Positions 15,369 to 44,774 of a stretch of DNA of 64,000 nt are shown piece after piece; position 1 is the stretch's first letter; each line of letters begins with the position of its first letter. The stretch is taken from assembly GCF_013315695.1 (NCBI RefSeq), contig NZ_CP054355.1, one strand, 5' to 3'. Made by a program: the position numbers and the translations under genes. The notes beneath the pieces are model-generated. The model did not search any database and was not told the DNA's origin. It saw nothing but the letters and a program-made list of their open reading frames with translations. Origin of the DNA: Escherichia coli (lineage in GTDB: Bacteria; Pseudomonadota; Gammaproteobacteria; Enterobacterales; Enterobacteriaceae).

Positions 15369-15372
15369 GGCG

Positions 15373-17776: not shown

Positions 17777-17778
17777 GA

Positions 17779-19158: not shown

Positions 19159-19261
19159 AACTTCGACTCTGTACGGCGGGTTGAATTAAGCGACGGGCAT
19201 ATGATCGGTCTGACCAACGCGCCAGAAGGGGGAATCCTCCTGGCGCGTTGGTTAGTCGGTT

Positions 19262-19792: not shown

Positions 19793-19829
19793 ACGTATCC
19801 TCTCGTCTAAAACAACGGCTATACAACGA

Positions 19830-21776
19830 TTATGGGTTATTTTTTATCGTCTCCCCGGGAACCGCGCTTTTGCGCCGCATCACCCACAGCGCCACCAGCG
19901 CCGCGAGCAGCAATACGACCTGCGGTAACAACGTTTCCACGTAGGGATAAATCCCCAGCCAGCTGATTTCAGGGAAGCCGTTAATCAACGTAGGCTGGAA
20001 CAGTTTGCCTTCCACCAGTTCCAGAACGCCTTTGCCCGCAAAGACGAAGGCCATCAGATACATGAAACTGCCGGTAAACATAAAGAAGGGTTTCAGCGGC
20101 AGGCGCACCACTGAGTAACGCATCACCAGCCAGGCGAGCAGCAGCACCACGCAGCCAATCACAAAACCGGCGCCAATCGCCATATGGCCGGATACCGTGT
20201 TTGCATCGCCAATCAGAGCGTAATAGAACAGCACCGTTTCCGCCCCTTCGCGGTACACCGCCAGGAAGCTGGTCAGCCATAGTCCGACCAGGGAGCCTCG
20301 CGACAGGGAATGAGACAGTTTGCCTTCCAGCCAGGCTTTCCAGTGGCGCGCTTCCACTTTGGACAGCAGCCAGTAACTCATAAAGAACAGCATCACGACG
20401 GCAATCAGCATCGTTATGCCTTCCAGCAGTTCACGGCTGGCGCCGGAGTTAGTAAACAGCATCTGGAAGATAGCGGCGGTGATGACGCTGGCGATCAGCG
20501 CCACAATTACCGACTGACGAATAAGCGGCAGCTTATCCTGATGGTTGTTTTTCACCATGTAGGCCACGATTGCCGCAACAATCAGCAGCGCTTCCAGCCC
20601 CTCGCGCACGATGATCATCAGACTATAGAGCAGCAGACTCCACTGGGTTTCTTCGCCTTCGCCCAGCATCGTCACGGCTTTTTGCAGATCCTGCGCCAGC
20701 GCGCTGGCCTCTGCATTCAGGCGCTCAACCGGCTGACCGGCCTTCATCAGACTGACCAGGCGGGTAAAATACGCCTCCAGCGTGGTTTTAAATGCCGAAT
20801 CGCGAGAGCCGATTTTGTTTTCCATGCCGCTGGCTTCGAAGCGGTCGAAGTAGGTATCCTGGATATCCAGAATCGCATTCTTCGCATCGCCGCCCTGATA
20901 GCGCGCTATCGCGTCCTGAATGCTCTGGTTAATTCCCGTCGTCACCTCAGCCCAGTCGGTGCGGTTATTTCCCTCGTCCGCCGCCGGAATGTTGTCTGCG
21001 CTTTGCGCTGCGGCAACCTGCTGATCGTCACGGGTGGTTGGCAAGCCGGGTAAGATATCCTCGATATCCTGTAGCAGCGTAGTGACCTGATAGGAGACAT
21101 CGTTGAGATGGTCAGGTTGCGCGGTCAGCGCAATCAGGGATGAGAATTGTTGGTTAATGGAGGCGGCATCTTTTGCAGAACGGTTTTGTCTGAGGGACAT
21201 CTCCATCTCAGAGTTTTTAAAGCCCTGATAGTGCGCCTGTTGAACGTGCTGACTGGCAACGCTGTAATTCCCGGCCTGATATTCAGTGACCGCCTGCGCC
21301 AGCAGATCGTCGATCGTCCTGAAACTCTCCTGCCAGTGAACGGCAATGTCGTCCCTGGACAGCGCGTTGTGCTGCTCTTCGGCCACCAGACGATGTCCGC
21401 CATCCAGCACCGGTTCCACTTCGCGCAGTGCGGCTTTCAGCCAGTCAATGCGCGCCTGGACGTCAGCGAGCGGTTTTTTCTCGCCAATCATTCGACGGAT
21501 CTCGCCGAATGCGCTCTCCATCTCGTAACTTTTGCGCGCGGAAATGTTGATGCGGATCGGCCCTTCCAGGTTCTCGAACACCTCAAAATAGGCCATTTGT
21601 ACCGTGCGGCGCGCCTCGTCGGCATGCTGTTGCTGATAAAGTTCCGCTGTTTTATCAAGACGTTGCTCGATATCTTCAATCAAAGGCGCATAATTCGTCG
21701 ACGCCCAGACACTCATGCTTATAAACAAGCCAAAGAGAGTAACCAACAAAGAGTTACGGAAGTTACGCACGTGCAC
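19830..21776 (-). CDS. fetM: FTR1-family iron permease with large N-terminal periplasmic domain (FetM-like)
   Basis: 648 aa; two RExxE motifs (REGLE, REGAE) in the C-terminal membrane domain. Confidence 0.7.
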   Translation of the reverse strand: MHVRNFRNSLLVTLFGLFISMSVWASTNYAPLIEDIEQRLDKTAELYQQQHADEARRTVQMAYFEVFENLEGPIRINISARKSYEMESAFGEIRRMIGEKKPLADVQARIDWLKAALREVEPVLDGGHRLVAEEQHNALSRDDIAVHWQESFRTIDDLLAQAVTEYQAGNYSVASQHVQQAHYQGFKNSEMEMSLRQNRSAKDAASINQQFSSLIALTAQPDHLNDVSYQVTTLLQDIEDILPGLPTTRDDQQVAAAQSADNIPAADEGNNRTDWAEVTTGINQSIQDAIARYQGGDAKNAILDIQDTYFDRFEASGMENKIGSRDSAFKTTLEAYFTRLVSLMKAGQPVERLNAEASALAQDLQKAVTMLGEGEETQWSLLLYSLMIIVREGLEALLIVAAIVAYMVKNNHQDKLPLIRQSVIVALIASVITAAIFQMLFTNSGASRELLEGITMLIAVVMLFFMSYWLLSKVEARHWKAWLEGKLSHSLSRGSLVGLWLTSFLAVYREGAETVLFYYALIGDANTVSGHMAIGAGFVIGCVVLLLAWLVMRYSVVRLPLKPFFMFTGSFMYLMAFVFAGKGVLELVEGKLFQPTLINGFPEISWLGIYPYVETLLPQVVLLLAALVALWVMRRKSAVPGETIKNNP

Positions 21777-21790
21777 ACCGCCAAAGAATG

Positions 21791-21812
21791 CAAATGATAA
21801 TTATTATCATAT
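21791..21812. promoter_or_regulatory. Fur box upstream of the fetM-like operon
   Basis: aatgataattattatcat, near-palindromic match to the Fur consensus, about 15 bp upstream of the fetM start. Confidence 0.6.
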
Positions 21813-22062
21813 CTTTTTGTCGCGTTGTACATGACCTGGATCATAAAAATGTCAGCAGACGACAAGTTATGTAAATTTATTTCATCAAATCGTGATGAAC
21901 ACACACATTATGCGTTGATAAAAGGGACGTTATCTCCCTGTTTTTCTCATGGAATTAACGGCAAGGCAGGCGCGGTAACAGAGGAATAAATCCCCCTGCC
22001 GACAGTGATATTATTCATTATCGGCAGGCAGAAATAAAACGCGTTATTGCGTACAGCAATAT

Positions 22063-22824
22063 TCAAAGATTAAGGTTATTTCGATCGCTGGCAAGACGCT
22101 GTAAGAATTGACCATATCCCTGCGGCCCCATCCAGTAGTTAATACTTTTCTCAACGCCGGTTGATGTCAACGTCGCACCGGAAATACCGTCAACGGTATA
22201 TTCATCGGCATGTTCAGGTTTATCCTGTACTATTTTCAATGCAGGATGTCCGCTGTTATCTAATAATCGTTTCCCTGGCCACTGTTTGCGCCAGTTGGCG
22301 TCTTCCACCCTAGCCCCCAGAAACGGCGTTTCCCGTTGCTGATAATAATACAGATTTCTCACCGTACGACCGTCCAGCCCCAGAGCAAGAAACGCATGCA
22401 TCATGGATTTCGCGCCCTTACCGGTAACTGGAATGATAACCTGCTGAATTTCATTATTTTTATCTTTCACAAAGAACACATCCGCCACCGTACAGCGCTG
22501 ACGAACCTGCGCTGGGTCGCGTTCAGGGGCAAGTTTTTCACACTTCTGCCGCGCGGTGTCCGCGCTGCTGCCAGCCACCAGTTCGCCGGAATCTAAATTA
22601 ACATGGCGTTGAATAATATAACGATGATAGAGCGTTTCGACTGATTTTTTATCCTGGGTCTCTGATTTCATCAGGCCCGCAGCGTGTAAAATTGCCGCCT
22701 GTTTTTCCTCCTCTGTCGGCTCCGTCATTTCTCCCTGGAACAGCATAAACCATGCCGCCGCCGCAACAAAAATAAGGACACAAAGCACCATCATTGATGC
22801 AACAATAATTTTACCCTTGCGCAT
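22063..22824 (-). CDS. orphan NqrC/RnfG-type FMN-binding domain protein, membrane-anchored
   Basis: N-terminal TM; C-terminal ..VIIPVTGKG..SMMHAFLALGLDG..YYQQRETP..DGISGATLTSTGV.. as in NqrC flavinylation region; no other nqr genes nearby. Confidence 0.6.
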   Translation of the reverse strand: MRKGKIIVASMMVLCVLIFVAAAAWFMLFQGEMTEPTEEEKQAAILHAAGLMKSETQDKKSVETLYHRYIIQRHVNLDSGELVAGSSADTARQKCEKLAPERDPAQVRQRCTVADVFFVKDKNNEIQQVIIPVTGKGAKSMMHAFLALGLDGRTVRNLYYYQQRETPFLGARVEDANWRKQWPGKRLLDNSGHPALKIVQDKPEHADEYTVDGISGATLTSTGVEKSINYWMGPQGYGQFLQRLASDRNNLNL

Positions 22825-23035
22825 TGAATTGTTATCCCTGTCAAAATGGAAATCGAAAAAATCGCCTGAACGTATCACAGACTTTCATTCAATTAAAACA
22901 GATATGCCATTATCAATTCAGGTTTGCAACGTCAGGCAGCGGTAAAAAATAATAACTGGCGTCGGTAAAAAAGCAGCAAAAATAACAGAAAACACGCTCT
23001 CCGCTCGTTTTACACATCCTTACAATGGGTTAAAA

Positions 23036-23058
23036 AATGCCGGGTTTCCCCGGCACGC
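23036..23058 (-). terminator. Rho-independent terminator after scsD
   Basis: Minus-strand hairpin gccggggaaacccggc followed by a T-run. Confidence 0.55.
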
Positions 23059-23060
23059 TA

Positions 23061-23567
23061 TCAAAACATGGCTGCCCGCCACAGACGTAACTTCATGCCC
23101 CAGTAGCTGGTCCAGCCGCTGGTCGTAGTTACCACCTGCCCCTTCGACACCACCACCAGCGTTGGCGTGACGCTGATTTCCCAGTTTCGTGATATCTCAC
23201 CGCCGCTATCATTCACGACGGGGAACGTCACCCTTTTACGCGATAACCAGCGGGAAACCTCCCCGTCATTACCGGAACGCAGCGCGATGGTCATGACGCT
23301 CTCCCCTTCCGACTGCAAACGGGCGACATCCGGCGTGGTGAAACGGCAGATACCGCACCAGCTCGCCCAGAAGTAGAGCAGCACCGGGCGTTCTTCACTG
23401 ATCGACGCCAGCGTTACGGTTTCCCCGTCCAGCGTATGCAGCGGCGTGCTGTCAAACATGGCCGGCATCTGCGGAGAACGCCAGACATCCAGCAGGATTA
23501 TCACGCCAGCCAGCAGAACCAGTAAGATCGCGCCTTCACGCAGCCAGCGGCGCAGTTTACTGAGCAT
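23061..23567 (-). CDS. scsD: ScsD-like membrane-anchored thioredoxin-like protein
   Basis: 168 aa, N-terminal TM, WASWCGICR CxxC motif. Confidence 0.65.
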   Translation of the reverse strand: MLSKLRRWLREGAILLVLLAGVIILLDVWRSPQMPAMFDSTPLHTLDGETVTLASISEERPVLLYFWASWCGICRFTTPDVARLQSEGESVMTIALRSGNDGEVSRWLSRKRVTFPVVNDSGGEISRNWEISVTPTLVVVSKGQVVTTTSGWTSYWGMKLRLWRAAMF

Positions 23568-23727
23568 GGGCCACCGCCAGTTTTTCTTTCACCACCGCCT
23601 CAAGGGTCTCCCACGATACCGCGCCGGGGATCATCTCGTCGCCAATGATGGTTGCCGGCGTCCCCTGAACGCCAACCAGCCGGGCGAGTTGCAGATTGGT
23701 GCTCAACGTCTCCATGCTTTTCTCATC
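23557..23727 (-). pseudogene. scsC: ScsC (DsbA-like) C-terminal fragment, truncated at IR copy B
   Basis: ..GVQGTPATIIGDEMIPGAVSWETLEAVVKEKL.. typical DsbA-like C-terminus; overlaps the scsD start. Confidence 0.5.
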
Positions 23728-23765
23728 GGGGTCAGTTTGGATATAGAGAATTATTGTACTATAAG
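23728..23765. repeat. Tn3-family-type 38-bp IR-like sequence (copy B)
   Basis: GGGGTCAGTTTGGATATAGAGAATTATTGTACTATAAG; same orientation as copy A. Confidence 0.5.
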
Positions 23766-24687: not shown

Positions 24688-24720
24688 GGGCTCCGTTTGG
24701 GAAACGGAAAATATTGTACG

Positions 24721-27708
24721 TTAAGGCTGTTTTTTGTACTGACTGACATCAACTGCTCGCAAAGGACGATACTTCCCTTCAGCCAGCTTCTTATTGTTTT
24801 TCCAGATATAGTCCCCTGTCAGATTAATGTGCTCCCAGCCCAGCGGAGACAAATGTGACAACAATTGCTCATTAATATGTAGCCCTTTCTTTTTCAGCAG
24901 GTTAATGGCGTTTTCTATATATACGGTATTCCACAAAGTGATTGCGGCAGTGAGCAGCGTAAGCCCACTGGCGCGGTAACTCTGGTTTTCAATACCACGA
25001 TCCCTTATTTCTCCCAGACGATGCATGAAGACAGCTCTGGCAAGGGCATTCCGGGCTTCCCCTTTGTTCAGACCTGCCTGAACCCTACGACGAAGCGCCG
25101 GATCGCGGAACCAGTCCAGCATGAACAGTGTTCGCTCAATACGACCAATTTCTCTTAACGCCTTAGCAAGGCCATTCTGTTTCGGATAACTGGTCAATTT
25201 TTTCAGCATCAGAGAAGCGGTCACTGTTCCCTGTTTTATTGAGGTCGCCAGTCTCAGAATTTCATTCCAGTGTATTTTTATCTCTTTGATATTCAGGGGG
25301 GTTGTGGAGATAATTGACTGTAGAGCAGGATAGTTATCAGCTTTACCTTGAATAAACAAACGTTTGTCATGCAGATCCCGGATCCTTGGGGCAAAAGCGA
25401 ATCCCAGCAGATGCATTAGTGCAAAAACATGCTCCGTGAAACCTGCTGTATCGGTGTAATGTTCCGTTATATCAAGGTCACTTTCGTGATACAGAAGACC
25501 ATCAAGTACGTGGGTGGAATCACGAACACGACTGATTACTTTGGTATAAAACGGACTATATTGATCTGAGATATGCGTATAAAACTGCACCCCAGGTTCC
25601 TGACCGTACTTCAAATTAACCTGACCGGCATAGCGCCCATGACTGCCAACCCTAAAATTCTGGCCGTCAGAGGATGAGGTGGAACCGTCTCCCCATAATG
25701 CCGCCAGCGGTCGTGACTTCTGGGCATTAACCAGTTCTGCCAGTGCAGCAGAGTACGTTTCATCACGGATGTACCATGCTTGTATGTTTTCCAGCGAAGC
25801 TCGTGTGGTTCCCGGACAGGACTCTGCCATTTTTTCCAACCCTAGATTGATGCCGTCCGCCAGGATAGTGGTTAGTAGTAAACGATTATCCTGAGGACGG
25901 ATTAGCGGATTCTTAAGATGAGTAAAATGTCGCGAGAAGGCAGTCCATCGCTCGACTTCATCAAGTATCTCTGTAATTTTGGGGTGCGGTAGCATGTTGT
26001 AAATCAGGTCGGCCAGGGGAGAGACTGTTGAAGGAACGCTGTTATCCAGTGGGGTGATCTTTACACCTTTATCTGAAATATCCACATCAGGAAGCTCCCC
26101 TGCGACAGCCATTGCGTTAACTTCCTCCAGACGGGAGGCCAGTAGAGTCAGTCTGGCATTAAGATAAGCCCCGCATTCTGTGCCAACAGGTAAATTTAAT
26201 AGGTTATTATTTAATAACTTTTCGAAATCATCGTTAGGCATAAGATAATCATCAAAGTTTTTGTAGCGCCGGGAGCCCCTGACCCAGATATCACCCGCCC
26301 GCAGCGCCCCCTTTAGCTCATTCATTGCGCAAATTTCATAGTATTGTCGGTCAATGCCTGAGGGGGTGACCACCATCTTTCTCCAGCTCTCAGGAATGAA
26401 ATCCAGTGGTGCCGATGCAGGAACCTTTCGTAGCTGTTTACGGTACATATCACGAATAGTTTCAAGGGCATCATTAAGCGGCAACGCTGCCGAAGTGGCT
26501 CTCAGTTGCAGGGCCGATAGAAAACGAAAAGAATATTTGCGCAATGTACTGAATTTTTCGGTAATAAGATGAAGCGGCTCAAAATTATCCTTACGTGCAA
26601 GAAGCTTTGTTTCCTCCAGACTGGCGACAAAATCGTCCCACGGTAACACTCGTTCAATAGCAGACAGAGGATCTTCGCCTGCATTGCGTGCATCCAGGAT
26701 AGCCTGGCCAACAGAAACATACTGACGTAACTTTTGCTGTATCAACTTGCCCGTTTTCTGAAGACGCTCAGCCTGCTGATGTTTTGCCCGACTGAACATG
26801 CTGCCTAGAATACGTTCATGCAGTTCTATAATTTCATCAATGATTGTGGCTCTGGCCTCAGTCAGTACACAGACCATCGTTGCGTATCGACGAGCAGGGG
26901 AAAAATCAGCCAGATCGCGACTGCTCATTTTGCGGCCCTCACGCGCGAGTTTCAGCAATCGGTTCTGGTGAACGGTTCTCTCCACTCCTTCCGGCAGCGC
27001 CAGAGCTTCAATAGCGTTAAGGCGGTCAATGTGTTGCAGGACATTCTTTCCATTGATTTTCCCTGGAGGTTGAAGCAGCCACGTCAAACGGGATATTTGT
27101 TTTTCATTTGTCACCAACAGGGCATCAAGCGCAGATTTATGCGTGATATCAAGGTGCGCATTCAGCGTTGTATACACCGTTTTATCACCCAGTGTCATTG
27201 CTTCTGCACAGGTACGTTCCAGAACATCAATGCCTGGAATAATAATTCGCTGTTGATGCAGGTACTTTAGTAACTCCTCTGCGATAAGTATGCCTCTGTC
27301 CGTTCTGGTAGACAGAGGGAGCAGATGCCGGATACATTCTTTCTGAAGTGCACCGTTAAAGGCTTTCAGTTCAAGATATCGATAAAGTTCCCTCATATGC
27401 TCACGTCTGGTGGTATCACGACCGGAAACGTATTCCTGCCAAAGTTCTGCTGATAACTTAAGTCGAGCGCCAATGGTTTTTAGCAATTTTGCGGGTGGGG
27501 ATGATTTTTTATCCGGGGCAAACCCAATACTTTTCAGATAACAGAGAAGAACGGCAAAACCAAACCGGCTGGCAGGTTTACGGTGAGCATTGATAATTGC
27601 CAGATCCTGCTCACTGAAATACGTCATTCGAGTCAGTGTTAACTCATCGTCTGGCAATGCCAGTAATGATTCTCTTTCCGATAGAGAAAGAATCTGCCTC
27701 CTTGCCAT
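24721..27708 (-). CDS. tnpA: Tn3-family transposase TnpA
   Basis: 995 aa; stop codon lies inside the terminal IR as in Tn3-family elements. Confidence 0.8.
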   Translation of the reverse strand: MARRQILSLSERESLLALPDDELTLTRMTYFSEQDLAIINAHRKPASRFGFAVLLCYLKSIGFAPDKKSSPPAKLLKTIGARLKLSAELWQEYVSGRDTTRREHMRELYRYLELKAFNGALQKECIRHLLPLSTRTDRGILIAEELLKYLHQQRIIIPGIDVLERTCAEAMTLGDKTVYTTLNAHLDITHKSALDALLVTNEKQISRLTWLLQPPGKINGKNVLQHIDRLNAIEALALPEGVERTVHQNRLLKLAREGRKMSSRDLADFSPARRYATMVCVLTEARATIIDEIIELHERILGSMFSRAKHQQAERLQKTGKLIQQKLRQYVSVGQAILDARNAGEDPLSAIERVLPWDDFVASLEETKLLARKDNFEPLHLITEKFSTLRKYSFRFLSALQLRATSAALPLNDALETIRDMYRKQLRKVPASAPLDFIPESWRKMVVTPSGIDRQYYEICAMNELKGALRAGDIWVRGSRRYKNFDDYLMPNDDFEKLLNNNLLNLPVGTECGAYLNARLTLLASRLEEVNAMAVAGELPDVDISDKGVKITPLDNSVPSTVSPLADLIYNMLPHPKITEILDEVERWTAFSRHFTHLKNPLIRPQDNRLLLTTILADGINLGLEKMAESCPGTTRASLENIQAWYIRDETYSAALAELVNAQKSRPLAALWGDGSTSSSDGQNFRVGSHGRYAGQVNLKYGQEPGVQFYTHISDQYSPFYTKVISRVRDSTHVLDGLLYHESDLDITEHYTDTAGFTEHVFALMHLLGFAFAPRIRDLHDKRLFIQGKADNYPALQSIISTTPLNIKEIKIHWNEILRLATSIKQGTVTASLMLKKLTSYPKQNGLAKALREIGRIERTLFMLDWFRDPALRRRVQAGLNKGEARNALARAVFMHRLGEIRDRGIENQSYRASGLTLLTAAITLWNTVYIENAINLLKKKGLHINEQLLSHLSPLGWEHINLTGDYIWKNNKKLAEGKYRPLRAVDVSQYKKQP

Positions 27709-27874
27709 ATAGTTATCCTTGTTAATTATTTAGTACGTTATTTTTGATGAAAAGGTTATTGCATAAGGGTACACCCTGATGCGAGATATAAAATGTGACC
27801 TCATACAAATAATGACATAACCTATATGCGATAGAATATATGCAACAACCTAAATGCGACAATGCGGTGAAAAA
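27709..27874. promoter_or_regulatory. res site / divergent promoter region between tnpA and tnpR
   Basis: AT-rich intergenic region with repeated atgcga-containing subsites. Confidence 0.5.
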
Positions 27875-28516
27875 ATGTTCATCAGAGCTTATTTAAGGGC
27901 GTCAACAGAAGATCAGTTTGCAGATCGAGCAAAAGAGATGCTGGAACAGTTCGTCCAAGAACGGGGGCATAAAATTGCCAGTTATTATCGGGAGAACATA
28001 AGCGGTACAAAACTTGACCGTCCGGAACTGAAACGCTTACTGATGGACAGTCACCGTAATGATATTTTGCTGGTCGAGCAGATAGACCGCCTGACCCGAC
28101 TGAGTAACAGCGACTGGATAACGCTGAAAAAGCAGATAGAACAACACGAACTGCGGATTGTCAGTCTGGATGTTCCAACATCATGGCAAGCCCTGTCAGA
28201 TAAAGATCCTTCACAATCAGATCCGATTACCCGCGCAGTGATAACTGCAATAAATAATATGCTTATAGACCTGATGGCCGCGATGTCGCATAAGGACTGG
28301 CTGAGTCGTCGCCAACGCCAAAAACAGGGAATTGAACGAGCTCATACGTTGGGTAAATACCGGGGAAAACAGGCCGATCAGGAACGTCATCAGAAAGTGT
28401 TGTACTACAGACAAGTAAAAAAACTCAGCATTAGAGAAACAGCAGATGCAACGGGCTACAGCACTTCGCAGGTTTGTCGCATTCAGGCTCTCTATAAAGA
28501 GGTTAAACCTGATTAA
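27875..28516 (+). CDS. tnpR: serine recombinase (resolvase TnpR-like)
   Basis: MFIRAYLRASTEDQ N-terminal serine-recombinase motif. Confidence 0.7.
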   Translation: MFIRAYLRASTEDQFADRAKEMLEQFVQERGHKIASYYRENISGTKLDRPELKRLLMDSHRNDILLVEQIDRLTRLSNSDWITLKKQIEQHELRIVSLDVPTSWQALSDKDPSQSDPITRAVITAINNMLIDLMAAMSHKDWLSRRQRQKQGIERAHTLGKYRGKQADQERHQKVLYYRQVKKLSIRETADATGYSTSQVCRIQALYKEVKPD

Positions 28517-28959
28517 AAAACAGCCTTAACGTACAATATTTTCCGTTTCCCAAACGGAGCCCTGCTAGCCTTTTCGTAATCATGCCATTGGAGATCATCT
28601 GGATTGATGTTAGGCATGACGTCTTGGCTGTAAAGCAAAAAATCAAGTGAGTCATCCATGATCTTCTCAAAACGCTTACTGCGGTTGTTTCTGTCACTAA
28701 TAGAGCCCGCCTGATACCACCTTTCCGACAACTGCCGATATCGAAGGAAGTGCTCATCCTCTTTCAGTTGATGAAACTGGTTCCTGATTTGTGCATCAAG
28801 CCGAATTGCCAGACCAGTAAAATCAGGTAACACAACCTTATGAGGGGCATTTTTGGGAGAAATCAGAGAAATGAATTCAGAAACCTGCATATCCTTGCTC
28901 TGAGGCCCGTAACGTTTATCAGAGCGGCGGGTGCCAATAAAAAAGCTTTCAATCGTCAT
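28513..28959 (-). CDS. hypothetical protein; 3' end replaced by Tn3-family IR sequence
   Basis: 148-aa ORF whose last ~16 codons are encoded within the transposon IR. Confidence 0.3.
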   Translation of the reverse strand: MTIESFFIGTRRSDKRYGPQSKDMQVSEFISLISPKNAPHKVVLPDFTGLAIRLDAQIRNQFHQLKEDEHFLRYRQLSERWYQAGSISDRNNRSKRFEKIMDDSLDFLLYSQDVMPNINPDDLQWHDYEKASRAPFGKRKILYVKAVF

Positions 28960-29006
28960 GATTTACCATATTAATCAGTATGTTACTCATTTATGTGTGT
29001 ATGAGG

Positions 29007-29171
29007 TTACATGTAGTACAGATGTAAAACCGGCGTAAGCCGGTGCGTTCGTCCGAAATAACCAATCCGTTCGTCCAGTTCAATGGCTGCTATCAGGTTC
29101 TGCTCCGCAATGTATTCACGAATGCGCTTCCTGTCCTGGCTGGCCAGCATGGTCCAGAATATCTCCATCAT
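29007..29171 (-). pseudogene. ParE/RelE-family toxin, truncated after about 37 residues (55-aa ORF)
   Basis: MMEIFWTMLASQDRKRIREYIAEQNLIAAIELDERI matches the ParE/RelE N-terminal helix pattern, then diverges and stops; 4-bp overlap with the upstream antitoxin. Confidence 0.45.
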
Positions 29172-29437
29172 TTACCGGCAACCTTCCTGCTCATTTCATC
29201 TCGCCATGCTGCAGCAGAGGATTCGACCATGTCATGGGGAAGTACATCGCCGTGCTCGAGTTGCTGACGTCCTGCCTCAACCTGGTCACGGAACCAGGTA
29301 TTATGCTGCCGTTCAACGGTCTGACGCATAAAATCCCGGATTAACTGAGAGCCATTACGGTCCATGCTTTTTGCAGCGGCCATAAAAGCATCCTTCAGTT
29401 CAGCGTCGATTCTTAAACTCATATTAACCTGTGCCAT
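29168..29437 (-). CDS. ribbon-helix-helix antitoxin (RelB/DinJ/ParD-like)
   Basis: N-terminal MSLRIDAELKDAF... RHH signature; translationally coupled to the toxin remnant. Confidence 0.55.
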   Translation of the reverse strand: MAQVNMSLRIDAELKDAFMAAAKSMDRNGSQLIRDFMRQTVERQHNTWFRDQVEAGRQQLEHGDVLPHDMVESSAAAWRDEMSRKVAGK

Positions 29438-29459
29438 TTATCACCTCGTCATTACTACG

Positions 29460-29476
29460 TATATACACAGTATATA
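29460..29476. promoter_or_regulatory. palindromic operator candidate upstream of the antitoxin
   Basis: Perfect palindrome tatatacACAgtatata 23 bp upstream of the antitoxin start. Confidence 0.4.
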
Positions 29477-29639
29477 ACGATTCAGACATCGTCACCAGGA
29501 TATGCCGCGTCAGCGGCATGGAAGGCGGCACGCTGTGGTTACATGTGATACCGGAGTAAAACCGCCGAAGCCCGGCGTCAGCCGATACTGATTGATAGAT
29601 TTCACCTTACCCATCCCCAGCCCTGCCAGACCATACCCG

Positions 29640-29880
29640 CTTTCAGCCATGAGAGAGCTTCTGTGCGCGGTCGGAGTGGTCCCGACGAGGGTTTACCCGA
29701 AGTCGGGGCGTATCTCCGCGTTAGCGGGCCGTGAGGGCCGCTTACGAGCGTGTACTGAGAACTTCCAGCGAGAAGACTGACAGCGATGATGATGTAGTTA
29801 CAACATTCATAATTAAAAGCGACTCTGTTCCGGCCCTTCGGGCCGGGGCGGGGCCGCTTTTCAGTTATGAGGGAGGGGCT
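29640..29880. other. structured non-coding element X, candidate single-strand initiation (G-site-type) priming signal downstream of oriR
   Basis: Several hairpins (ccggcccttcgggccgg); shares gtcccgac...ggccgtSagggccgcttacgagcKtgta with element Y at 60560-60730. Confidence 0.35.
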
Positions 29881-29999
29881 TTGTTGTTTCGGTTCTGCGC
29901 TGGACCGGGGTTTTCCTGGTGGTTGTATTTGAGTGTTGTAACTAAAATGGCTCCGGTCGGGGCCCGCCGCTTGCGGTGGGAGGTGCATATCTGTCTGTC

Positions 30000-30350
30000 C
30001 ACAGGACAGGCAATGAACAGGTTTTCTTTTTAAATGAATGTAATTAAGTAGTTTAAAGGAGATATAAACAGGTGTTTAAAAGATACATTGCACCCTGTAA
30101 CGCTGGCGGCTGGCGCTTTATGAGGTGAACGGTTGTAACCTTATCGGGAAGTCCCTTGCAGTTTAATGTGGATAAGCACAATTACCCGTCTGTGAGGCGT
30201 ATTTTGTATTAAAAACAGGGGGAACCGGATGCACCTGAAGGTGGATGGTGAGGTTATTTTTTGTATGTGGTGCTGATTTTTTGTGCACTGGCGGGCTTCA
30301 GGCGTGCGGAAGCCTCCGGCGCGTGCCGGATTATTCTGAGGAGGTCACTT
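30000..30350. other. IncFII origin region (oriR) downstream of repA1
   Basis: Position directly 3' of repA1; DnaA box tgtggataa at 30167-30175. Confidence 0.5.
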
Positions 30351-31208
30351 TCAGGGGGAAGCTGTAGCCAGCCGGCTGTAATTGCGGTTACGTGACAGAA
30401 TCATGCGCTCCTTCACACGACGCTCCACTTCGCGTTTTACCGTCTCACCATTAGCAGTAAAGCGCCCTTCCGAGATTTCACGCGTCAGCTGCCGTTTCAC
30501 CAGGGTGACGATATCCTGACGTTCCCTGTTCGCATCACGACGCGCACGGGCACGTTTTATTCCACGGGACTTAAGCTCTGTCTGGTAACTGCGGAAACGC
30601 TCACGCACAAAACGCCAGGCTTTCGCTATTAGTTCATCCATACCCAGGGTATCCAGCCCCTGTTTTTTGCGCTGTCTGTTTTCCCATTCAACACGACTGC
30701 GGCGCGCAGCTGCCACTGCATCCTCAGACACATCAAGGGCAGCAAACAGAGCCGGTGTGAACGTGATATCGGTCGGAATGTAGCACCCGATAAGCGGGTC
30801 ATATTCCGTCTGGTAGGTAATCAACCCCAGCTCTGACAGGAACGTCAGGGCACGGGTGGCACGAGTGATGGAGAGTTTTCCTGCACCGGACTCTGTCGCC
30901 AGTCCGCACTCAATGGCCAGCGTGGTGATGGAGCACTGGACGCGGTTGGCCAGCGGGTCATAGTGGAAACACAGCCCCTGCAGGAGCGCATCAATAGCCC
31001 GTCGACGCAGCACCGGTGGCATGCGTCGACGCAGACCACGCGAACGGGCATGCGCCACATGAATGGCGAAATCAAAACGGGAGGTGAAGCCCACCGCCTT
31101 TTCCATCAGTTTTTCGCAGAACTTCAGCGTTCCGGCACCTTTACGGGGTGTAAACACCGGATTCGGGTTCTTTACCTGGCGGTAATACGTTTGGTGAAGA
31201 TCAGTCAC
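30351..31208 (-). CDS. repA1: IncFII replication initiator RepA1
   Basis: 285 aa from a GTG start, [19 protein letters not shown]...RLATASP, as remembered for R100/R1 RepA1. Confidence 0.85.
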
Positions 31209-31295
31209 ACCATCCTGCACTTATGTTGCACAGAAGGAGTGAGCACAGAAAGAAGTCTTGAACTTTTCCGGGCATATAACTATACTCCCCGCATA

Positions 31296-31386
31296 GAGCA
31301 ACAGCTTCTATGCAGTTTCTTGTTAGCCCCGGTAATCTTTCCTACTCGCCAAAGTTGAAGAAGATTATCGGGGTTTTCGCTTTTCT
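31296..31386 (+). ncRNA. copA: CopA-like antisense RNA of the IncFII replicon (approximate)
   Basis: Plus-strand stem-loop ccccggtaatctt...aagattatcgggg followed by ttttcgctttt, between repA2 and repA1. Confidence 0.45.
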
Positions 31387-31519
31387 GGCTCCTGTAAATC
31401 CACATCAGAACCAGTTCCCTGCCACCTTACGGCGTGGCCAGCCACAAAATTCCTTAAACGATCAGCAATCTATCACGCACACCAGAAACAGGCAAGAATG
31501 TGATGTCGCTACATTTTAG

Positions 31520-31768
31520 TTAGCTAAAAGCACTCTTCTGCTTTATCAGTTCGGCAATCATCTCAGCCTGGGTAACGCCCTCAGCTTCACACATCACCTG
31601 CAATTGCGCTTTTAACGCAGCAGGAATGAACACTCTGAGTTCTTTATGTGTAGCTCGTTTTCTTGCCAGGGATGCCTGCTGACGTTCTGCAAGCGTCAGA
31701 GGATTACCTTTTCTGTATGCTCGCTTTGTACCTGATGAGGAAGTCACTGCATTTTCTGTCTGCGACAT
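31520..31768 (-). CDS. repA2: IncFII copy-number repressor RepA2/CopB
   Basis: 82-aa basic protein immediately upstream of the copA/repA1 region. Confidence 0.75.
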
Positions 31769-33352: not shown

Positions 33353-33596
33353 GTTATTCTCCATATCAGATAAATGGCACCTGTATTTCAGGCATCCTGA
33401 ACATTGCAGCACACAATGAATAACACCTTGTTTTGTGAAATAAATCACAAAATATAAAATCTCGACTTAATACGGAAAAAACTCTGTGCTACTCAGAACT
33501 GTACGGTCATACTGCCCGACCGGATATTAAAAAAAGCAAATCTCATGCATTATTCAGCCTTCTGAATCCCTGGAGTAATGAAGGCTGCTTTTTTCG

Positions 33597-33818
33597 TTAC
33601 ACCCTTCCCCGGCTGCGCCGGTGGCAGTGTTCAGCCCTTTTTCGGGCAAACTGCTGCCAGTCTGTCCGGGGCGCAACACCGGCAGCCCGTCGCCATGCTT
33701 CTGCCGCTTCCATCCAGCGTCCACTGACCTCCAGAATAACGGCCCGGCTTCCGGCACGCTGCCAGCGCCAGACCTGACCGTTCCGTGAACTGTTTCTGAA
33801 TCCATTCATCTTTATCAC
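33597..33818 (-). CDS. small Arg/Trp-rich hypothetical protein
   Basis: 73-aa ORF; weak support. Confidence 0.2.
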   Translation of the reverse strand: MIKMNGFRNSSRNGQVWRWQRAGSRAVILEVSGRWMEAAEAWRRAAGVAPRTDWQQFARKRAEHCHRRSRGRV

Positions 33819-36288: not shown

Positions 36289-39200
36289 TCAGTCTCCGCC
36301 CAGGGTTTTCTCTTTCTGCAGGTCACGAACCATATCCCGCTCCATCTGCTGCAGACGCTCCTGCAGCAGATTTTCCCGGGCAACCTCCCGGACCGCTTCC
36401 CGCTCCCGTTGTGATTCACGCAGCACACTCTCCGGCAGTGCGGTTTCCCGTTCAGATATGGCAGACCGGTCACGCTCCTGTCCGGCAATATCCCTGACAG
36501 CCAGCTCTGTTTTGCCATCCGGCAGGTCAGGTTTGTTCTCTGCCATTTTCCTGACAATTTCATCTGCGCGGCGTTCCGTTTCACGGCGGATGGCCTCTTC
36601 AGCCTGCCGCTGTGCCAGTACCTCTGCCGTGACCGGTTCGCCATTTCCGGCCCCCGGCTGGACGCTGTTATCCGGGATATCCCCCCACACGCGGCCACCG
36701 GTGATGGCACCGGGATTCCACGGACGACCTTCACCGGCAATTCTCACCACCACACCGCTGTCAGGATTATCACGGGCAATCCGGACGCCATCCTGCATAT
36801 TATCAGCCAGCAGGCTCTCTCCGTTACGGCTGCCCTGCAGGGCCACGAACTGCGCATCCCCGCTGCCTTTCACCCGTCCTTCACCACTGAATCCCCGCAG
36901 CCCGTTTCCGTCATCCGTGGTCAGTGGGTTCAGCCAGATACCAGCTGACTTGCCGTTACGGTCAAACGCCGGCAGTGCCACATACGGCTGCGGATATTTA
37001 CGTCCCGGTGCAATAAACCGTGCAGGGCTGTCTCCCCCGGCCAGCCCTGCCTGACGGAGAACGGCACGGCCTGCCGCCACGTCCCGCAGTTCCCGTGCCG
37101 TACTGAACAGCCGCTGCGCATTCATGACCTCCCGGTCCGGTTTCGGCTCCAGCACATCGTGGGCAGTTCCTTTCTGTACGGCATTGTTAATGGCATCCGT
37201 CCAGCCCTGACGGTTATCGGTGTACACCTGCACATGCTGCTTCATACGCGACAGGGCCACGTAGGCTGACTCAAAGCCGGCCATCAGTTTCCGGTTACCT
37301 TCCGTGCCTTCAAGCGCGATGGCAAAGGTTTCACTCGCCCCCTGCGCACCGTGGGCGGTGATGGCATAAGCCAGGTCAATATGTTGCTCTGCCCGCTCCT
37401 GGCCGGGGCGAATCACCCGGGTCTGCTGTCCGTCTGACAGCGTGACACTGTCACCGGAAACCGCTGTCACCGTCCAGACGCTGTTGGCCACATAACCGCG
37501 CTCCCGGTCACTCTTCGTGAAGCGCATCCGGTCGCCGGTCCCCACCCGGATTTTGTCCGGGGTGTACAGTGTGACACCTTCAGCCACCGCCTCCCGGGGC
37601 GAAATCAGCCGCGTGTTACCTTCCGCATCCTCCAGGGTTATCAGCCCGTCATCCTTGCTGATACCGGCAATCCGGTGATACACACTATCCACCAGGGCAA
37701 GGGCATCCGGGTTATTCTCCCAGGTGGAGAGACGACGCAGCTCCCCGTCACGTATATTCGCTGTGTTCAGGACAGGCACCATGACCTGCTCTTTCCCCAG
37801 CTCACCGGCCTTTTCCCGTGCATCATGAATCATGCTGTTCAGTACGCGCCGGTCCTCATTCAGGTGCGTGACAATCAGCGTCTGCTCCCGTGCTTCCGGT
37901 GTCCTGCCGGTATAGTCGCGGACAATGGCTTCATACAGTGTCATGGGGACATCCGGAAAAGTCTCACCTTTCAGCATCGCCTTCTGCTGCGCTTCTGCCA
38001 GTTTCGCTTCCTGGCTGTGACTGAACTCCGTCACGGAGTGCTCCGGTGCCCATGCGCCCTCCTGACGGGGAACCTGAGACGGTTTCACACTCTCAAGCCC
38101 GGACAGTGCCCTTTCCACATCCCGGTTAATCAGGCTGTATACCGCCTCCCGCAGTTCCGGCGTCTGACGCACAATCTCCTTCATGATGACCACATCGGCA
38201 GCACTGCGCGTCTGCTGGAGACGGAAAGGCTGACCGGGCGCGATGGCCTGCAGCTGGTCCGTGTCACCACTGGCCACGGCACGACCGCCACCGGCCGCAA
38301 TCAGGGCGTATGCCCGTGCCATGTCGGTATTGCCCACCATTGAGCTCTCATCGAGCAGGAACAGCGTGTTGCTGAAATCCGGCGTTTCTCCGCTGCGCTG
38401 CTGCAGCTGCGTGTCATGCAGAAAGGACGCCAGCGTCTGTGCATCCACGCCGGCGCTGCGCATCTCACCGACCGCACGGTGCGTGGGCCCCAGCCCCACA
38501 ACTCGGGGACGCTCACTCGCCGGCAGCATGTTCACGGCTGACATCACCGCCCGGAACTGTGTGGTCTTACCCACACCGGCATAACCCTGTACCACCGTGA
38601 AACGGTCGGACGTTTCCAGTATCATACGGGTGGCGGCACGCTGTCCCGACGTTAACGTCTCCATGAGTTCGCCGGGTACTCTCTCCATCAGCGGCGTGAC
38701 CGCCTCCTTACCTTCGAGAATATGGCGAAGAATACTTTTTTCTGCCTCATACGACGCACGGGAAACCAGCAGGCCTGTGCCATAGCCTTTTGCCACATCC
38801 ACATACAGTAAGTCACCGCGTTTTATCTGCGCATTGATTTCCCCTCCCAGTTCAGTAAAACCGGTTCCTTCTGCAGCAAACGACTTCGCCTCTGTCAGCA
38901 GGTCCACCATGCTGAAGGCCAGGTTTTTACTTTCCAGCACAGGAAGGGCCAGATGAATGGCCTGCTGTGCCGGCGTGTGCAGCCCGGTTTTCTGCAGACT
39001 GATAGCGGTTTCCAGCGATGTCTCACCGGCCCGCGCCTTTATCTGCTCAGAAACCACCGTAAAGGAGGGATGGCGGGCAAGTTTTTCCGCAGTACGGGTT
39101 TCATCCAGTGAGGAATACAGCCGGACATCACGACCGCTGCGGGCCAGACCGTTCAGGGTGGCGTTGTCCATTGCCATCTGTGTGACGGAGGCAAACACCG

Positions 39201-41559
39201 TCGCACTGTCACTGACGGAATGCCCGGGCGTTTCCACCCAGCCGTTCTCCAGCTTCAGTGCCGTGAACGGTGAATCAGCCACAGGCAGGGTGGCCGGTTC
39301 AGCCCGCCCCGGCACAACAACCGTCATCGCATCTTCACTGACGGATGCCACCTGCAGGCGGTCACCGCCGGAGACGCGGAGTCCGGGAATTTTCCCTGTC
39401 ACCCTCAGTCGCTCGCCGTCTGCCACCGGCATTTTTTCCGGCCGGAACAGCGACCAGCTGCTGTCCAGGGAGGAAATACGCACCACCTGCGTTTCGCCCT
39501 GCGCATCCCGCAGGGTCAGGCTGTGACTCTGCGCCGTCACCCGGTCGATAACATAGCGGTCATGACTGCGTGTCTCCGGGTTCCACTGCTCCATCACCAT
39601 CCCCGGTCGGTACATATCCCGCAGATAACGGCTCCGGCTGTCCAGCCAGACCGGTGACAGGGCGGTCATGGTCACCTCCGGGTGTCCGAGCACGCCCTGT
39701 GTTTTCAGCTCACTGCGAATGGCCTGTGTCAGTATGGCCTGTTCCCGTACCCCGCTGACCTGTGCCACGCTCTCTTCTCCGGCTTTCACGCTGGCCGCAA
39801 AATCTCCGGCCAGCCGGTCATAGCGGACATTCCGGTCCGGTTCACTGATGATGGTTGCCGGTCGCTGTTCTCCGCCCTGCCAGCGATACGTGTTCACCCC
39901 GGTATCCTTCATGGCCATCAGCGCACTGCCTGTACCGGTTCGCTGCCCGCTGTCGGTTATCAGGACCTGTACGTTATGACGTGCGGCACCGTCCAGCAGG
40001 GTTAACGTCTCTTTCAGGGAGAGTTTTTCGCCCTGGTCGACGATAACAGTACTGCCCGGCGTGAAGACCATGCCCTCCTGCAGCTGACGACGTCCGGTTA
40101 TCAGCTCACCGGACAGCCGTTCATCCTGCTTCAGGTTCATCTGCGAGCGACGGTCAGCAGCGATAATCTGCACCTCCCGCCCCTGCTCCCGGGCCATCAT
40201 GACCAGTTCAGCCACCCGCTCACGCTGCCCGGCTGCACCGCCCTGCCCGGACACAATGGCCAGCGACGGACGGTCCTGTGCCAGAACACTGACCGCATCG
40301 CTGTAACCAGCCGTCCGGGGGACACTTTTCTCCGGATGTACGGTCACCCGGTTCTGTTTCATGATGTCACGACTGAGTGCCCGGACGGACAGCTCATCGA
40401 GCACATGAATTCCTGATGTGAACAGCCCCTTCTCACGGTCGAGGGGGATAAGCTGCTCACGGCTGATGGCCTCATCGATACCGGCGCGTGCCCGTTCAAT
40501 CACACCATTTTCCGGCGGCAGTATGCCGACCGTCCTGGCCAGCACGTCCGTATACGTGAACTGCACTTTTCGTTCACTTAATCCGGCAATCGCCTGTGTC
40601 ACCGCCTGCTGCACATCCGGCCCGTCCTGTGAAGCAGGCCCGGGCGCCTGCGTGCGGATCTCCGCACGCTGATCCGCCGCGTCACGATATGCCCGGATGT
40701 CGAACCCGGTTTCCTTCAGCGTCTGCATCCATTCAGCCATTCTGATTTCCGGATCGACGTGCTGTTTGGATTTACGCGTATCCAGTGCCGCCACATCCCG
40801 GGATTTCAGCGAGGCGTCTTCCCCGACGGCCTCCCGGATAGCCTGTGAGCGTCCGGAAAAGGCCTCCACCGGTACGCCCGGCATCTCCCACATACCGTGC
40901 TTACCCACCACTTCGGTTTCATAGCCCAGCGCCTCAACCTGCTCTTTCAGTTTTTCCCGGTAGAGCCTGCCAAAGGCAATCTGATTAGCGTACACATTCT
41001 CAATGAACCCCGTTTTCCCCACTTTGTCACTGCTCAGTGTCTTCCACTCACCGTTATGCTGCGTGACATTAGCCACCACCGCATGCGTGTGTAACTGTGG
41101 TTCCTGATCGCGACTGGTGTCGTGGTTAAACAGTGCCATCACCAGATTACCGGTCAGCACCGTTTCTGACTGTCCGTCCGTCATCACCCGTGTGGAGGCC
41201 AGCGCCTCCACCTGACGAACAGCAAAGTCCACGGCCTGGTTATGTGCATCAATCAGGCGCTTATCGCCACCTAACATGGCCATCATGGAGACACTTTTGG
41301 GGGCGGAGAAGGTCAGGTCGTAGCCGGGACGATGCTTATTACTGCCATCCTGCATGCGGCTTAGATCCGCTCCGTCCGGCAGCCTTCCCTCCAGAAGACG
41401 GGTAAAAACATCCTTATCGACACTGCCCTGCAGTCCCAGCTGTTCAGCCCCCCTGCCGGCCCAGCGTTCTCCCATGCTGCCCAGTACATAGTAATTATCC
41501 TTGTCGGTATAATAGTTACCGGCACTTCCGGCCGATCTGACCTGCGCGATACTCATCAT
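36289..41559 (-). CDS. traI: relaxase/helicase TraI
   Basis: 1756 aa, N-terminal relaxase and helicase Walker motifs. Confidence 0.9.
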   Translation of the reverse strand: MMSIAQVRSAGSAGNYYTDKDNYYVLGSMGERWAGRGAEQLGLQGSVDKDVFTRLLEGRLPDGADLSRMQDGSNKHRPGYDLTFSAPKSVSMMAMLGGDKRLIDAHNQAVDFAVRQVEALASTRVMTDGQSETVLTGNLVMALFNHDTSRDQEPQLHTHAVVANVTQHNGEWKTLSSDKVGKTGFIENVYANQIAFGRLYREKLKEQVEALGYETEVVGKHGMWEMPGVPVEAFSGRSQAIREAVGEDASLKSRDVAALDTRKSKQHVDPEIRMAEWMQTLKETGFDIRAYRDAADQRAEIRTQAPGPASQDGPDVQQAVTQAIAGLSERKVQFTYTDVLARTVGILPPENGVIERARAGIDEAISREQLIPLDREKGLFTSGIHVLDELSVRALSRDIMKQNRVTVHPEKSVPRTAGYSDAVSVLAQDRPSLAIVSGQGGAAGQRERVAELVMMAREQGREVQIIAADRRSQMNLKQDERLSGELITGRRQLQEGMVFTPGSTVIVDQGEKLSLKETLTLLDGAARHNVQVLITDSGQRTGTGSALMAMKDTGVNTYRWQGGEQRPATIISEPDRNVRYDRLAGDFAASVKAGEESVAQVSGVREQAILTQAIRSELKTQGVLGHPEVTMTALSPVWLDSRSRYLRDMYRPGMVMEQWNPETRSHDRYVIDRVTAQSHSLTLRDAQGETQVVRISSLDSSWSLFRPEKMPVADGERLRVTGKIPGLRVSGGDRLQVASVSEDAMTVVVPGRAEPATLPVADSPFTALKLENGWVETPGHSVSDSATVFASVTQMAMDNATLNGLARSGRDVRLYSSLDETRTAEKLARHPSFTVVSEQIKARAGETSLETAISLQKTGLHTPAQQAIHLALPVLESKNLAFSMVDLLTEAKSFAAEGTGFTELGGEINAQIKRGDLLYVDVAKGYGTGLLVSRASYEAEKSILRHILEGKEAVTPLMERVPGELMETLTSGQRAATRMILETSDRFTVVQGYAGVGKTTQFRAVMSAVNMLPASERPRVVGLGPTHRAVGEMRSAGVDAQTLASFLHDTQLQQRSGETPDFSNTLFLLDESSMVGNTDMARAYALIAAGGGRAVASGDTDQLQAIAPGQPFRLQQTRSAADVVIMKEIVRQTPELREAVYSLINRDVERALSGLESVKPSQVPRQEGAWAPEHSVTEFSHSQEAKLAEAQQKAMLKGETFPDVPMTLYEAIVRDYTGRTPEAREQTLIVTHLNEDRRVLNSMIHDAREKAGELGKEQVMVPVLNTANIRDGELRRLSTWENNPDALALVDSVYHRIAGISKDDGLITLEDAEGNTRLISPREAVAEGVTLYTPDKIRVGTGDRMRFTKSDRERGYVANSVWTVTAVSGDSVTLSDGQQTRVIRPGQERAEQHIDLAYAITAHGAQGASETFAIALEGTEGNRKLMAGFESAYVALSRMKQHVQVYTDNRQGWTDAINNAVQKGTAHDVLEPKPDREVMNAQRLFSTARELRDVAAGRAVLRQAGLAGGDSPARFIAPGRKYPQPYVALPAFDRNGKSAGIWLNPLTTDDGNGLRGFSGEGRVKGSGDAQFVALQGSRNGESLLADNMQDGVRIARDNPDSGVVVRIAGEGRPWNPGAITGGRVWGDIPDNSVQPGAGNGEPVTAEVLAQRQAEEAIRRETERRADEIVRKMAENKPDLPDGKTELAVRDIAGQERDRSAISERETALPESVLRESQREREAVREVARENLLQERLQQMERDMVRDLQKEKTLGGD

Positions 41560-43784: not shown

Positions 43785-43834
43785 GATGAAACTCCGGGAA
43801 AATCTGGAACAGGGCAGAAAAGGATGATGTGGGG

Positions 43835-44572: not shown

Positions 44573-44644
44573 AATGACTTTCTCCGGAAGATCCCGGCTT
44601 CGCCGGCAACACTTCACGGTCGCACAAAGAATTTGCACAACCGC

Positions 44645-44745
44645 TCAGTGTTTTCATATTTATTTCGGAAACGCCGGGAGGTGACAAAATTTATTTTGTT
44701 ACATCCCGGGGTTGGACAACGAGCAACGCGAGGCGTCAGCAAGGA
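44645..44745. repeat. ~80-bp repeated element, copy 2 (between traT and the extra gene)
   Basis: Conserved flanks shared with 31935-32015, different internal hairpin. Confidence 0.55.
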
Positions 44746-44774
44746 GGCCGGTCAGATCAGCCTCCTGACGAGGT

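Follow-up and report, generated by a model that had tools for sequence, protein, structure and literature searches.

Plasmids of the pUTI89-like group of cjrABC-senB F plasmids have a described set of defining markers (PMC13108677, PMC7272548), namely cjrABC-senB, an iron-uptake "island", RepFIB together with RepFII, the lack of RepFIA, and a Col156-type fragment. pUTI89 itself has been typed F29:A-:B10, i.e. without RepFIA (PMC13108677), pUTI89-like plasmids have been typed IncFIB/IncFII/Col156 (PMC7272548), and pRS218 has been described with IncFIB and FIIA replicons, StbAB and CcdAB (PMC4155114). Here we compare with these plasmids a 64,000-nt stretch of Escherichia coli DNA (contig NZ_CP054355.1), in which an earlier note had seen layers of replication and maintenance modules, only some of them intact. 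The term window denotes the whole 64,000-nt stretch throughout; positions 28513-31768, at which the note had placed the modules, are only a part of it.

For the partition genes the closest described system is the double par locus of pB171, which joins par1 (parMRC, type II) to par2 (parABC, type Ib) (Ebersbach and Gerdes 2001, as cited in PMC9800825 and PMC4270457). The par2 part is organized as parC1-parA-parB-parC2 (PMC4270457), and the parAB genes of pUTI89 have been described as a type Ib system beside stbAB with reference to this locus (PMC9800825). Loss of parAB was reported in the same work to make pUTI89 less stable. The Rep protein of ColE2 is an origin-specific primase (PMC4538821).

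The whole window was collinear in gene order with pEC14_114. In the annotations of pCE10A and pEC14_114 the order is IncFII, iron cluster, senB-cjr and rep pseudogene, followed by int, RepFIB, ccdAB, resD, parA and parM/parR. The family markers given above were recovered in the window, with the RepFIB repA gene itself predicted from relatives. The window is therefore very likely a 64-kb part of an IncF virulence plasmid with more than one replicon, of the same kind as pUTI89, pEC14_114, pRS218 and pCE10A, with cjrABC-senB and iron uptake as cargo. Our reading of its maintenance modules, to which we assign a probability of about 0.9, is that of a mosaic F-type backbone with one presumably working IncFII unit and several broken maintenance genes, a real but ordinary arrangement that is already known. 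The architecture has been published, and the plasmid departs from the published family in nothing "in kind". It shares with the family the ColE2-type rep pseudogene, the RepFIB-ccdAB-resD-parAB-parMR block and the lack of RepFIA. It differs in having yacA, a yacB remnant and a cut open reading frame (ORF) beside the origin, where the pEC14_114 family has the insertion sequence (IS) IS26, in an inserted Tn3-family element, and in an IS1 deletion of 37 kb that includes oriT and traM-traU.

The presence of the modules, their intactness or truncation, their collinearity with relatives and the structure of their junctions were read directly in the DNA. Every module listed in the earlier note was present, with homology far beyond chance, and its picture of a mosaic with several maintenance modules stands. 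Its coordinates are right for the IncFII replicon, which lies complete at 28513-31768 together with yacA and the truncated yacB, and wrong for the ColE2-type rep, the partition genes and ccdAB-resD, which lie elsewhere in the window. No replication, partition or toxin-antitoxin genes beyond those listed were found with the F proteins, Rfam and the annotations of near-identical records. The comparison has little value beyond correct annotation, and no new biology is implied.

The IncFII replicon and the genes beside its origin

The components of the IncFII replicon, in the order copB-copA-tap-repA1-oriR common to R100 and R1, are the following.

31520-31768, minus strand: copB (repA2), transcriptional repressor of the repA1 promoter, 82 aa (NCBIfam PRK13702, 3.4e-40)
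31293-31382, plus strand: gene of the CopA antisense RNA, copy-number control (Rfam RF00042, 89.8 bits with a gathering score of 60, E 1.9e-15, full model)
31201-31275, minus strand: tap leader peptide, translationally coupled to repA1 (coordinates taken from the annotation of the 100%-identical NZ_CP069530.1)
30351-31208, minus strand: repA1, IncFII initiator, 285 aa, uninterrupted (TIGR03474 1-275/275, 1.2e-174)
29448-30350, minus strand: IncFII origin region, oriR (collinear with R100 89670-90571 inside a 4590-bp alignment, 92%)

An intact IncFII replicon had been claimed, and copB, CopA, tap, repA1 and oriR were indeed all found, at 29448-31768 on the minus strand. RepA1 scored 579 bits against TIGR03474 (cut-off 446.9) and is identical to R100 RepA1 at 275 of 285 residues; Tap is identical to R100 Tap at 21 of 24. 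The CopA gene lies opposite the repA1 leader, with the strand and position expected for IncFII. CopB scored 136 bits against PRK13702 (cut-off 87), and in the 100%-identical plasmids its gene is annotated "replication regulatory protein RepA". From finO to the end of the origin region (window 34025-29448) the DNA forms one single collinear alignment with R100, with 92% identity over 4.6 kb. CopB, however, is identical to R100 CopB at only 51 of 82 residues, so that the copy-control allele is a different one.

In the origin region a perfect DnaA box, TTATCCACA, was found at 30167-30175, which is 176 bp beyond the repA1 stop codon, and is followed by an AT-rich stretch at about 30040-30100. A DnaA box and then an AT-rich stretch after repA1 is the layout that we take to be that of oriR in R1. 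On sequence grounds the IncFII basic replicon is complete, and it would be expected to be active. CopB would repress the repA1 promoter, the CopA antisense RNA would block translation of the tap leader and thereby of the coupled repA1, and RepA1 together with DnaA would open the origin about 180 bp downstream. In the adjoining finO-tra region, the antisense RNAs AS-pc02, AS-traI and AS-traG were found above the Rfam gathering score (33516-33700, 38634-38710 and 48047-48132, respectively).

Downstream of the origin R100 has pemIK, whereas the plasmid studied here has yacA and a remnant of yacB, next to an ORF that is cut.

29168-29437, minus strand: yacA, RelB/DinJ-like antitoxin, intact, 89 aa (PGAP name in identical records; weak TIGR02384 match)
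29057-29171, minus strand: yacB toxin remnant, first 37 of 92 codons followed by unrelated sequence (comparison with intact yacB)
28513-28959, minus strand: 5' portion of a hypothetical ORF of 924 nt, interrupted at 28562/28563 by the Tn3-family element (full ORF in NZ_CP069530.1 and NZ_CP027554.1)

The window yacA was aligned with the yacA of pJKHS016_1. The intact yacB of that plasmid encodes 92 aa; the window copy diverges from it after residue 37, and Pfam ParE_toxin matches the remnant over profile positions 1-32 of 89 only. In identical DNA, PGAP calls yacB a pseudogene, "missing C-terminus". The antitoxin is thus present and the full-length toxin is not, which agrees with the claim of two toxin-antitoxin pairs of which one is decayed, the other being the full-length ccdAB described below. 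The cut ORF runs on into the inverted repeat of the transposon, and homology to NZ_CP069530.1 and NZ_CP027554.1 begins at 28562. Positions 28513-31768 as a whole have matches in thousands of enterobacterial plasmids and are 100% identical to three E. coli plasmids.

The ccdAB-resD block, its probable RepFIB neighbour and the partition locus

The right end of the window, beyond the partition genes, consists of the following features.

58528-59337, minus strand: resD, tyrosine recombinase for multimer resolution, 269 aa (252/268 aa identical to F ResD; XerD-like NCBIfam matches)
59338-59643, minus strand: ccdB toxin, 101 aa, intact (100/101 identical to F CcdB, I56V; Pfam CcdB 1-101/101)
59645-59863, minus strand: ccdA antitoxin, 72 aa, intact (72/72 identical to F CcdA; Pfam CcdA 1-71/71)
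59864-63740: F-collinear spacer from ccdA to RepFIB, with the intergenic region upstream of ccdA, conserved ORFs of 642 nt and 168 nt, and the UptR small RNA (blastn against F, 92.7-98.9%)
63745-64000, plus strand: RepFIB upstream control region, with four iteron-like repeats and a leader that reaches the last base ahead of the repA(FIB) start codon (core-motif scan)

The earlier note had described an F-like ccdAB-resD block that lacks repE and oriS. The pair ccdA and ccdB is full length and in operon order. RepFIA is absent from the window, as that note said: repE and sopAB do not adjoin ccd-resD, and F RepE, SopA, SopB and PifC gave no match in the window (tblastn; nothing below E=0.1 for RepE, SopA and SopB) or in the whole of pEC14_114. 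The absence of RepFIA (repE/oriS/sopAB) holds for the whole plasmid family. The block is not a replicon-less leftover, however, because it is contiguous with RepFIB as in F. Four window segments (64000-63340, 63020-61729, 61731-60265 and 60281-58543) are collinear with F 37621-47661 at 92.7-98.9% identity (blastn), a collinearity that spans the base before the RepFIB repA start codon to about 5 codons short of the resD stop. The iteron cores, which the earlier note had not listed, stand at 63745, 63766, 63787 and 63831 (63745-63851, with a spacing of 21 bp); four of the seven ATAARCTRT cores of the whole window fall within these 87 bp. A DnaA box lies further upstream at 63625-63633. In pEC14_114 the same four iterons precede the RepFIB initiator gene repA, and four others follow downstream of it. 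UptR (Rfam RF02568, above gathering score) was located in the F-like spacer at 61268-61359.

The window breaks off where this gene would start. The alignment with pEC14_114 ends at the base before the GTG of a "RepB family plasmid replication initiator", and repA starts at the base next after the equivalent of the window end in pEC14_114, F and the contigs L011, L012 and L016; it is also present there in pCE10A. The exact ParM'-IS1 fusion protein, which is specific to the lineage, was found in 154 blocks of the public collection. Among the matches listed, three contigs continue past the window end (L011, L012 and L016, 98.6-100% identical to the window), and in all of them a 325-aa Rep3_N protein follows directly that is identical to F RepFIB RepA at 324 of 325 residues. 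Also among the matches listed, three complete records end exactly at the equivalent position, which means that these records were cut just ahead of repA(FIB). Most simply read, the window is the final part of a record that begins with repA(FIB), and very probably RepFIB repA starts immediately beyond position 64000. The earlier note had named a complete replicon adjacent to the modules but outside the window as something that would change its interpretation; judging from these relatives, RepFIB is very probably such a replicon. An apparently "orphan" maintenance block can be an effect of the window edge, with the initiator starting one base past it. CcdAB, through post-segregational killing, and ResD, through multimer resolution, would contribute stable inheritance next to RepFIB.

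Plasmid F (NC_002483) has in addition the pif segment of about 4.8 kb, absent from the window, and repE/oriS/incC/sopABC, where the window has a double par locus instead, from the 3' end of resD. In F a copy of the short repeat AGATCCGAAAA stands at either end of the pif segment (L004 5091-5107 and 9923-9939); the window has a single copy at the junction (60240-60310), which fits a deletion and an insertion through the short repeat alike. A 320-bp stretch at 63020-63340, between ATCCTGA repeats, is present in the window and in pEC14_114 and absent from F. We also observed a GC-rich element of 53 bp (63491-63543) with about 80% similarity both to a pair of inverted copies on either side of repE in F and to a copy downstream of the origin in the ColE2-type plasmid L017. 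A hairpin or ssi-like role of this element was considered and rejected, as its fold was not better than that of shuffles (z = -1.73). In the MOB-suite table of PLSDB both pEC14_114 and R100 are labelled "IncFIA". Since pEC14_114 has no RepE homologue, this label does not mean a RepFIA/repE replicon.

The partition genes lie between the IS1 and resD.

56541-57248, minus strand: parM (stbA) remnant, first 236 of 323 codons; parR/stbB absent (Pfam StbA_N complete)
57249-57476: intergenic region shared by parM and parA, about 229 bp, with runs of CAYCAYA-like repeats spaced by 7 bp (putative parC1-like centromere/operator)
57477-58121, plus strand: parA, small type Ib ATPase, 214 aa, intact (NCBIfam ParA_partition 6-203/203, 6.7e-34, below its cut-off)
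58115-58390, plus strand: parB, ribbon-helix-helix protein and putative centromere binder, 91 aa, intact (Pfam RHH_1; overlaps the end of parA)
58391-58527: repeat-rich region downstream of parB (putative parC2-like), abutting the resD stop codon, with the breakpoint between F and non-F sequence

The ParM remnant aligns to residues 2-232 of the 320 residues of R1 ParM. The match to its C-terminal domain covers profile positions 3-75 of 159 only, about 87 C-terminal residues being gone, and full-length ParM and ParR, which make up a type II ParMRC system, are both missing; the truncation of parM and the loss of parR are both located at the IS1 (55773-56540). The other half is of type Ib: a small Walker-type ParA without an N-terminal DNA-binding domain is followed by a ribbon-helix-helix protein. 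The closest solved relatives of ParA are ParF/ParA proteins of 206-214 aa, and its exact sequence occurs on at least 1000 contigs. The heptad-spaced repeats seen on both sides of parAB are so short that chance may account for them. The double par locus spans 56541-58527, and the parMR/parAB pair stands at the same position in pEC14_114 and pCE10A. The layout resembles that of pB171 in the divergent parM and parA operons around a repeat-bearing intergenic region, the 214-aa ParA, the 91-aa ribbon-helix-helix ParB and the second repeat region; the difference is that the par1 half has been inactivated in the window by IS1, with parM truncated and parR deleted. The cluster names for ParA and ParB carried no pB171 label. 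The earlier claim of two partition systems, one of them decayed, was accurate as to the genes, parA and parB being intact and parM and parR broken. The two systems are, though, halves of one divergent composite locus, one of which has been inactivated, and not separate acquisitions. The ParA/ParB half would contribute to stable inheritance.

The ColE2-type rep fragment

Near the left end of the window lies one further piece of a replicon.

2414-3359, plus strand: ColE2-type replicon fragment, with the upstream region at 2414-2705 and rep codons 40-254 at 2715-3359 (tblastn, blastn)

In a tblastn search with the closest Rep protein (P0003, 304 aa), residues 40-254 corresponded to window 2715-3359, with 213 of 215 residues identical and no stop or frameshift. 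The ORF at 2835-3401 matches the Pfam Replicase profile over positions 56-130 only, together with PriCT_1, and it is related to Rep proteins about 304-311 aa long that are encoded by plasmids of roughly 5 kb. Compared with the 5162-bp rep-mob plasmid that carries P0003 (L017), the upstream region was kept (2414-2705, 92%), whereas 192 bp comprising the leader, the start codon and 39 codons are gone and the last 50 codons are also missing. The origin AGACCAAATAAGCCTATATCAGATAACAGCGCC, located just past the rep stop codon in L017, was not found in the window even when up to 3 mismatches were allowed. That the fragment still holds the antisense-control region or the origin was therefore ruled out, given the 192-bp deletion of leader and start and the lack of an origin.

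The fragment shares the Replicase and PriCT_1 domains with small plasmids of the ColE2-P9/Col156 type, with 99% amino-acid identity to the 304-aa Rep. These plasmids have a full Rep and an origin directly downstream of it; the window, keeping codons 40-254 of 304 only, has neither a complete Rep primase nor a cognate origin. A ColE2-type rep fossil, as it had been called, is what we found. With no start codon, DNA-binding C-terminus or origin, it is unable to serve as a replicon; it arose by clean deletion and not by the mutational erosion of a gene, and PGAP annotates it as a pseudogene in pCE10A. We infer that the Col156 typing match of pUTI89-like plasmids is this fragment. Directly upstream of it there is a stretch of 31% GC (about 1300-2300) with short hydrophobic ORFs only, adjoined by a colicin E1-type immunity gene (929-1264) and a DUF6404 gene (453-800). 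The region 929-2400 may be what remains of the bacteriocin cargo of a captured small plasmid.

Junctions and rival explanations of the mosaic

Two mobile elements bound the segment that holds the IncFII replicon and the transfer genes.

24688-28562: Tn3-family cryptic transposon, 3875 bp, with tnpA (24721-27708) and a serine resolvase (27854-28516, 220 aa); perfect 48-bp inverted repeats
55773-56540: IS1 joining truncated trbC (55293-55772) to truncated parM; IS1 terminal repeats read directly

The Tn3-family element (Pfam DDE_Tnp_Tn3 and Resolvase) carries tnpA and the resolvase only, sits in a cut IS26 on its left flank, and links the pUTI89-type cargo segment to the IncFII-tra segment. Its flanks, GATCT and TGCTA, differ, and there is thus no 5-bp target duplication. 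Its closest plasmid copies are only 87-95% identical, and E. coli 2013C-3033 has an identical 664-bp end of the element in its chromosome as well as in a plasmid. The IS1 likewise has no target duplication, as its flanks CGCCCAGGC and AAAGTCCGG differ. The IS1 junction corresponds to a deletion of pEC14_114 53895-91105 (37 kb), none of which matches the window. The deleted stretch contains parR, umuDC, the leading region with psiB and hok, oriT, and traM through traU, and trbC (55293-55772) is left without its first 53 codons. With oriT, traM-traU and the leading region absent from the window, the plasmid is predicted to be probably neither self-transmissible nor mobilizable. An IS1-deleted pUTI89-type derivative without oriT and half of the transfer genes may be of some epidemiological use in tracking non-conjugative senB plasmids. 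A metagenome scaffold (L016) with the identical IS1/parM junction has, at 12166-16185, nitroreductase, YcaO, ABC-transporter and pentapeptide-repeat genes instead of trbC, a set reminiscent of a microcin B17-like operon. One and the same IS1 copy has thus joined parM to different partners.

Identity to pEC14_114 along the window was as follows.

1-10328: 99.83%
12614-23761: 99.94%
29495-31475 (IncFII origin to repA1): 94.4%
31475-31701 (cop region): not aligned by megablast
32599-55772 (tra region): 97.1-98.1%
56540-64000: 99.93%

As the cop region could not be aligned by megablast, the FII allele is different from that of pEC14_114. The IncFII-tra segment comes from another F lineage than its flanks, and segment replacement with IS-mediated deletion fits better than cointegration of whole plasmids. 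This reading follows from the identity step (94-98% as against 99.8-99.9%) and from the Tn3-family and IS1 boundaries without target duplication. The "fossils" are deletion products and not results of slow decay, with the ColE2-type rep retaining 99% protein identity to a live Rep and with yacB and parM cut. Of the successive cointegration and pruning events proposed earlier, pruning is borne out by the 37-kb IS1 deletion, by the Tn3-family element that lacks a target duplication at the other junction, and by the truncated rep and yacB, while for cointegration there remains only an old ColE2-type capture.

We weighed this replacement reading against the view that the modules are stacked relics of serial fusions between IncFII, ColE2-type and F/RepFIA plasmids, with ccdAB-resD as the leftover of a pruned RepFIA replicon, which we consider unlikely. 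The ColE2-type fragment, with 97.7% DNA identity to a free 5.2-kb plasmid, is embedded in a large plasmid, and capture of a small plasmid therefore did happen at some time. In F, moreover, repE/oriS/sopAB directly follow resD, and the homology of the window to F ends about 5 codons before the resD stop, with no RepE, SopA or SopB in the window. But ccd-resD, contiguous with RepFIB exactly as in F, has a neighbouring replicon, and the whole family is without RepFIA, so that its loss or replacement is old and shared and not a layer specific to this window. Nor do serial fusions agree with both par systems being one composite locus, or with the IncFII-tra segment, which follows pEC14_114 collinearly and resembles an allelic replacement more than a fusion. 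It is quite improbable, in our view, that the fragments are kept for a function, with YacA as anti-addiction against incoming yacAB plasmids, the parM-parA repeats as centromere/operator of parAB, and the ColE2-type fragment causing incompatibility or interference towards Col156-type plasmids. It is true that yacA is intact and identical across many plasmids carrying the same truncated yacB, that the IS1 cut left intact the repeats in the intergenic region ahead of parA, and that the rep fragment reads through 215 codons without an internal stop or frameshift. The rep fragment, however, lacks its own start codon and the 192 bp in which the leader lies, which makes its expression doubtful, and most of its antisense-control region is gone; a recent origin accounts equally well for the near-identity to live copies. 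There is also a slim chance that the IncFII-tra segment (28563-55772), with its diverged copB/copA control region, represents a replicon-allele swap by which a pUTI89-type plasmid escaped IncFII incompatibility, with the orphan yacA and the par centromere region kept as working parts.

Several points weigh against our own reading. The activity of each module is predicted from sequence, and RepFIB repA in the source molecule is likewise deduced from relatives and not read. The likeness to pB171 concerns the described layout, not sequence identity. The Tn3-family junction is found in this assembly alone: no other record of the Tn3-family/IncFII junction was found in PLSDB, RefSeq complete E. coli, GTDB representative genomes or JGI metagenomes, and an exact look-up of the 148-aa ORF/transposon fusion found nothing. 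This absence, together with the occurrence of the same transposon in more than one replicon of some strains, is what could be expected if the mosaic, or at least this junction, were an assembly artefact joining two plasmids through a repeated element. We regard such an artefact as very improbable, because many assemblies, complete long-read records among them, independently show the IS1 junction that bounds the segment on its other side, and because the window is collinear with pEC14_114 across both junctions, which a random mis-join would not be expected to keep.

The segments 1-10328 and 12614-23761 have opposite orientation relative to pEC14_114. IS elements lie between them (10317-12614), among them an IS3-family element with an ALIL pseudoknot at 10201-10317, and the arrangement of the two segments seen in the window is also that of pEBM1 and pCE10A.

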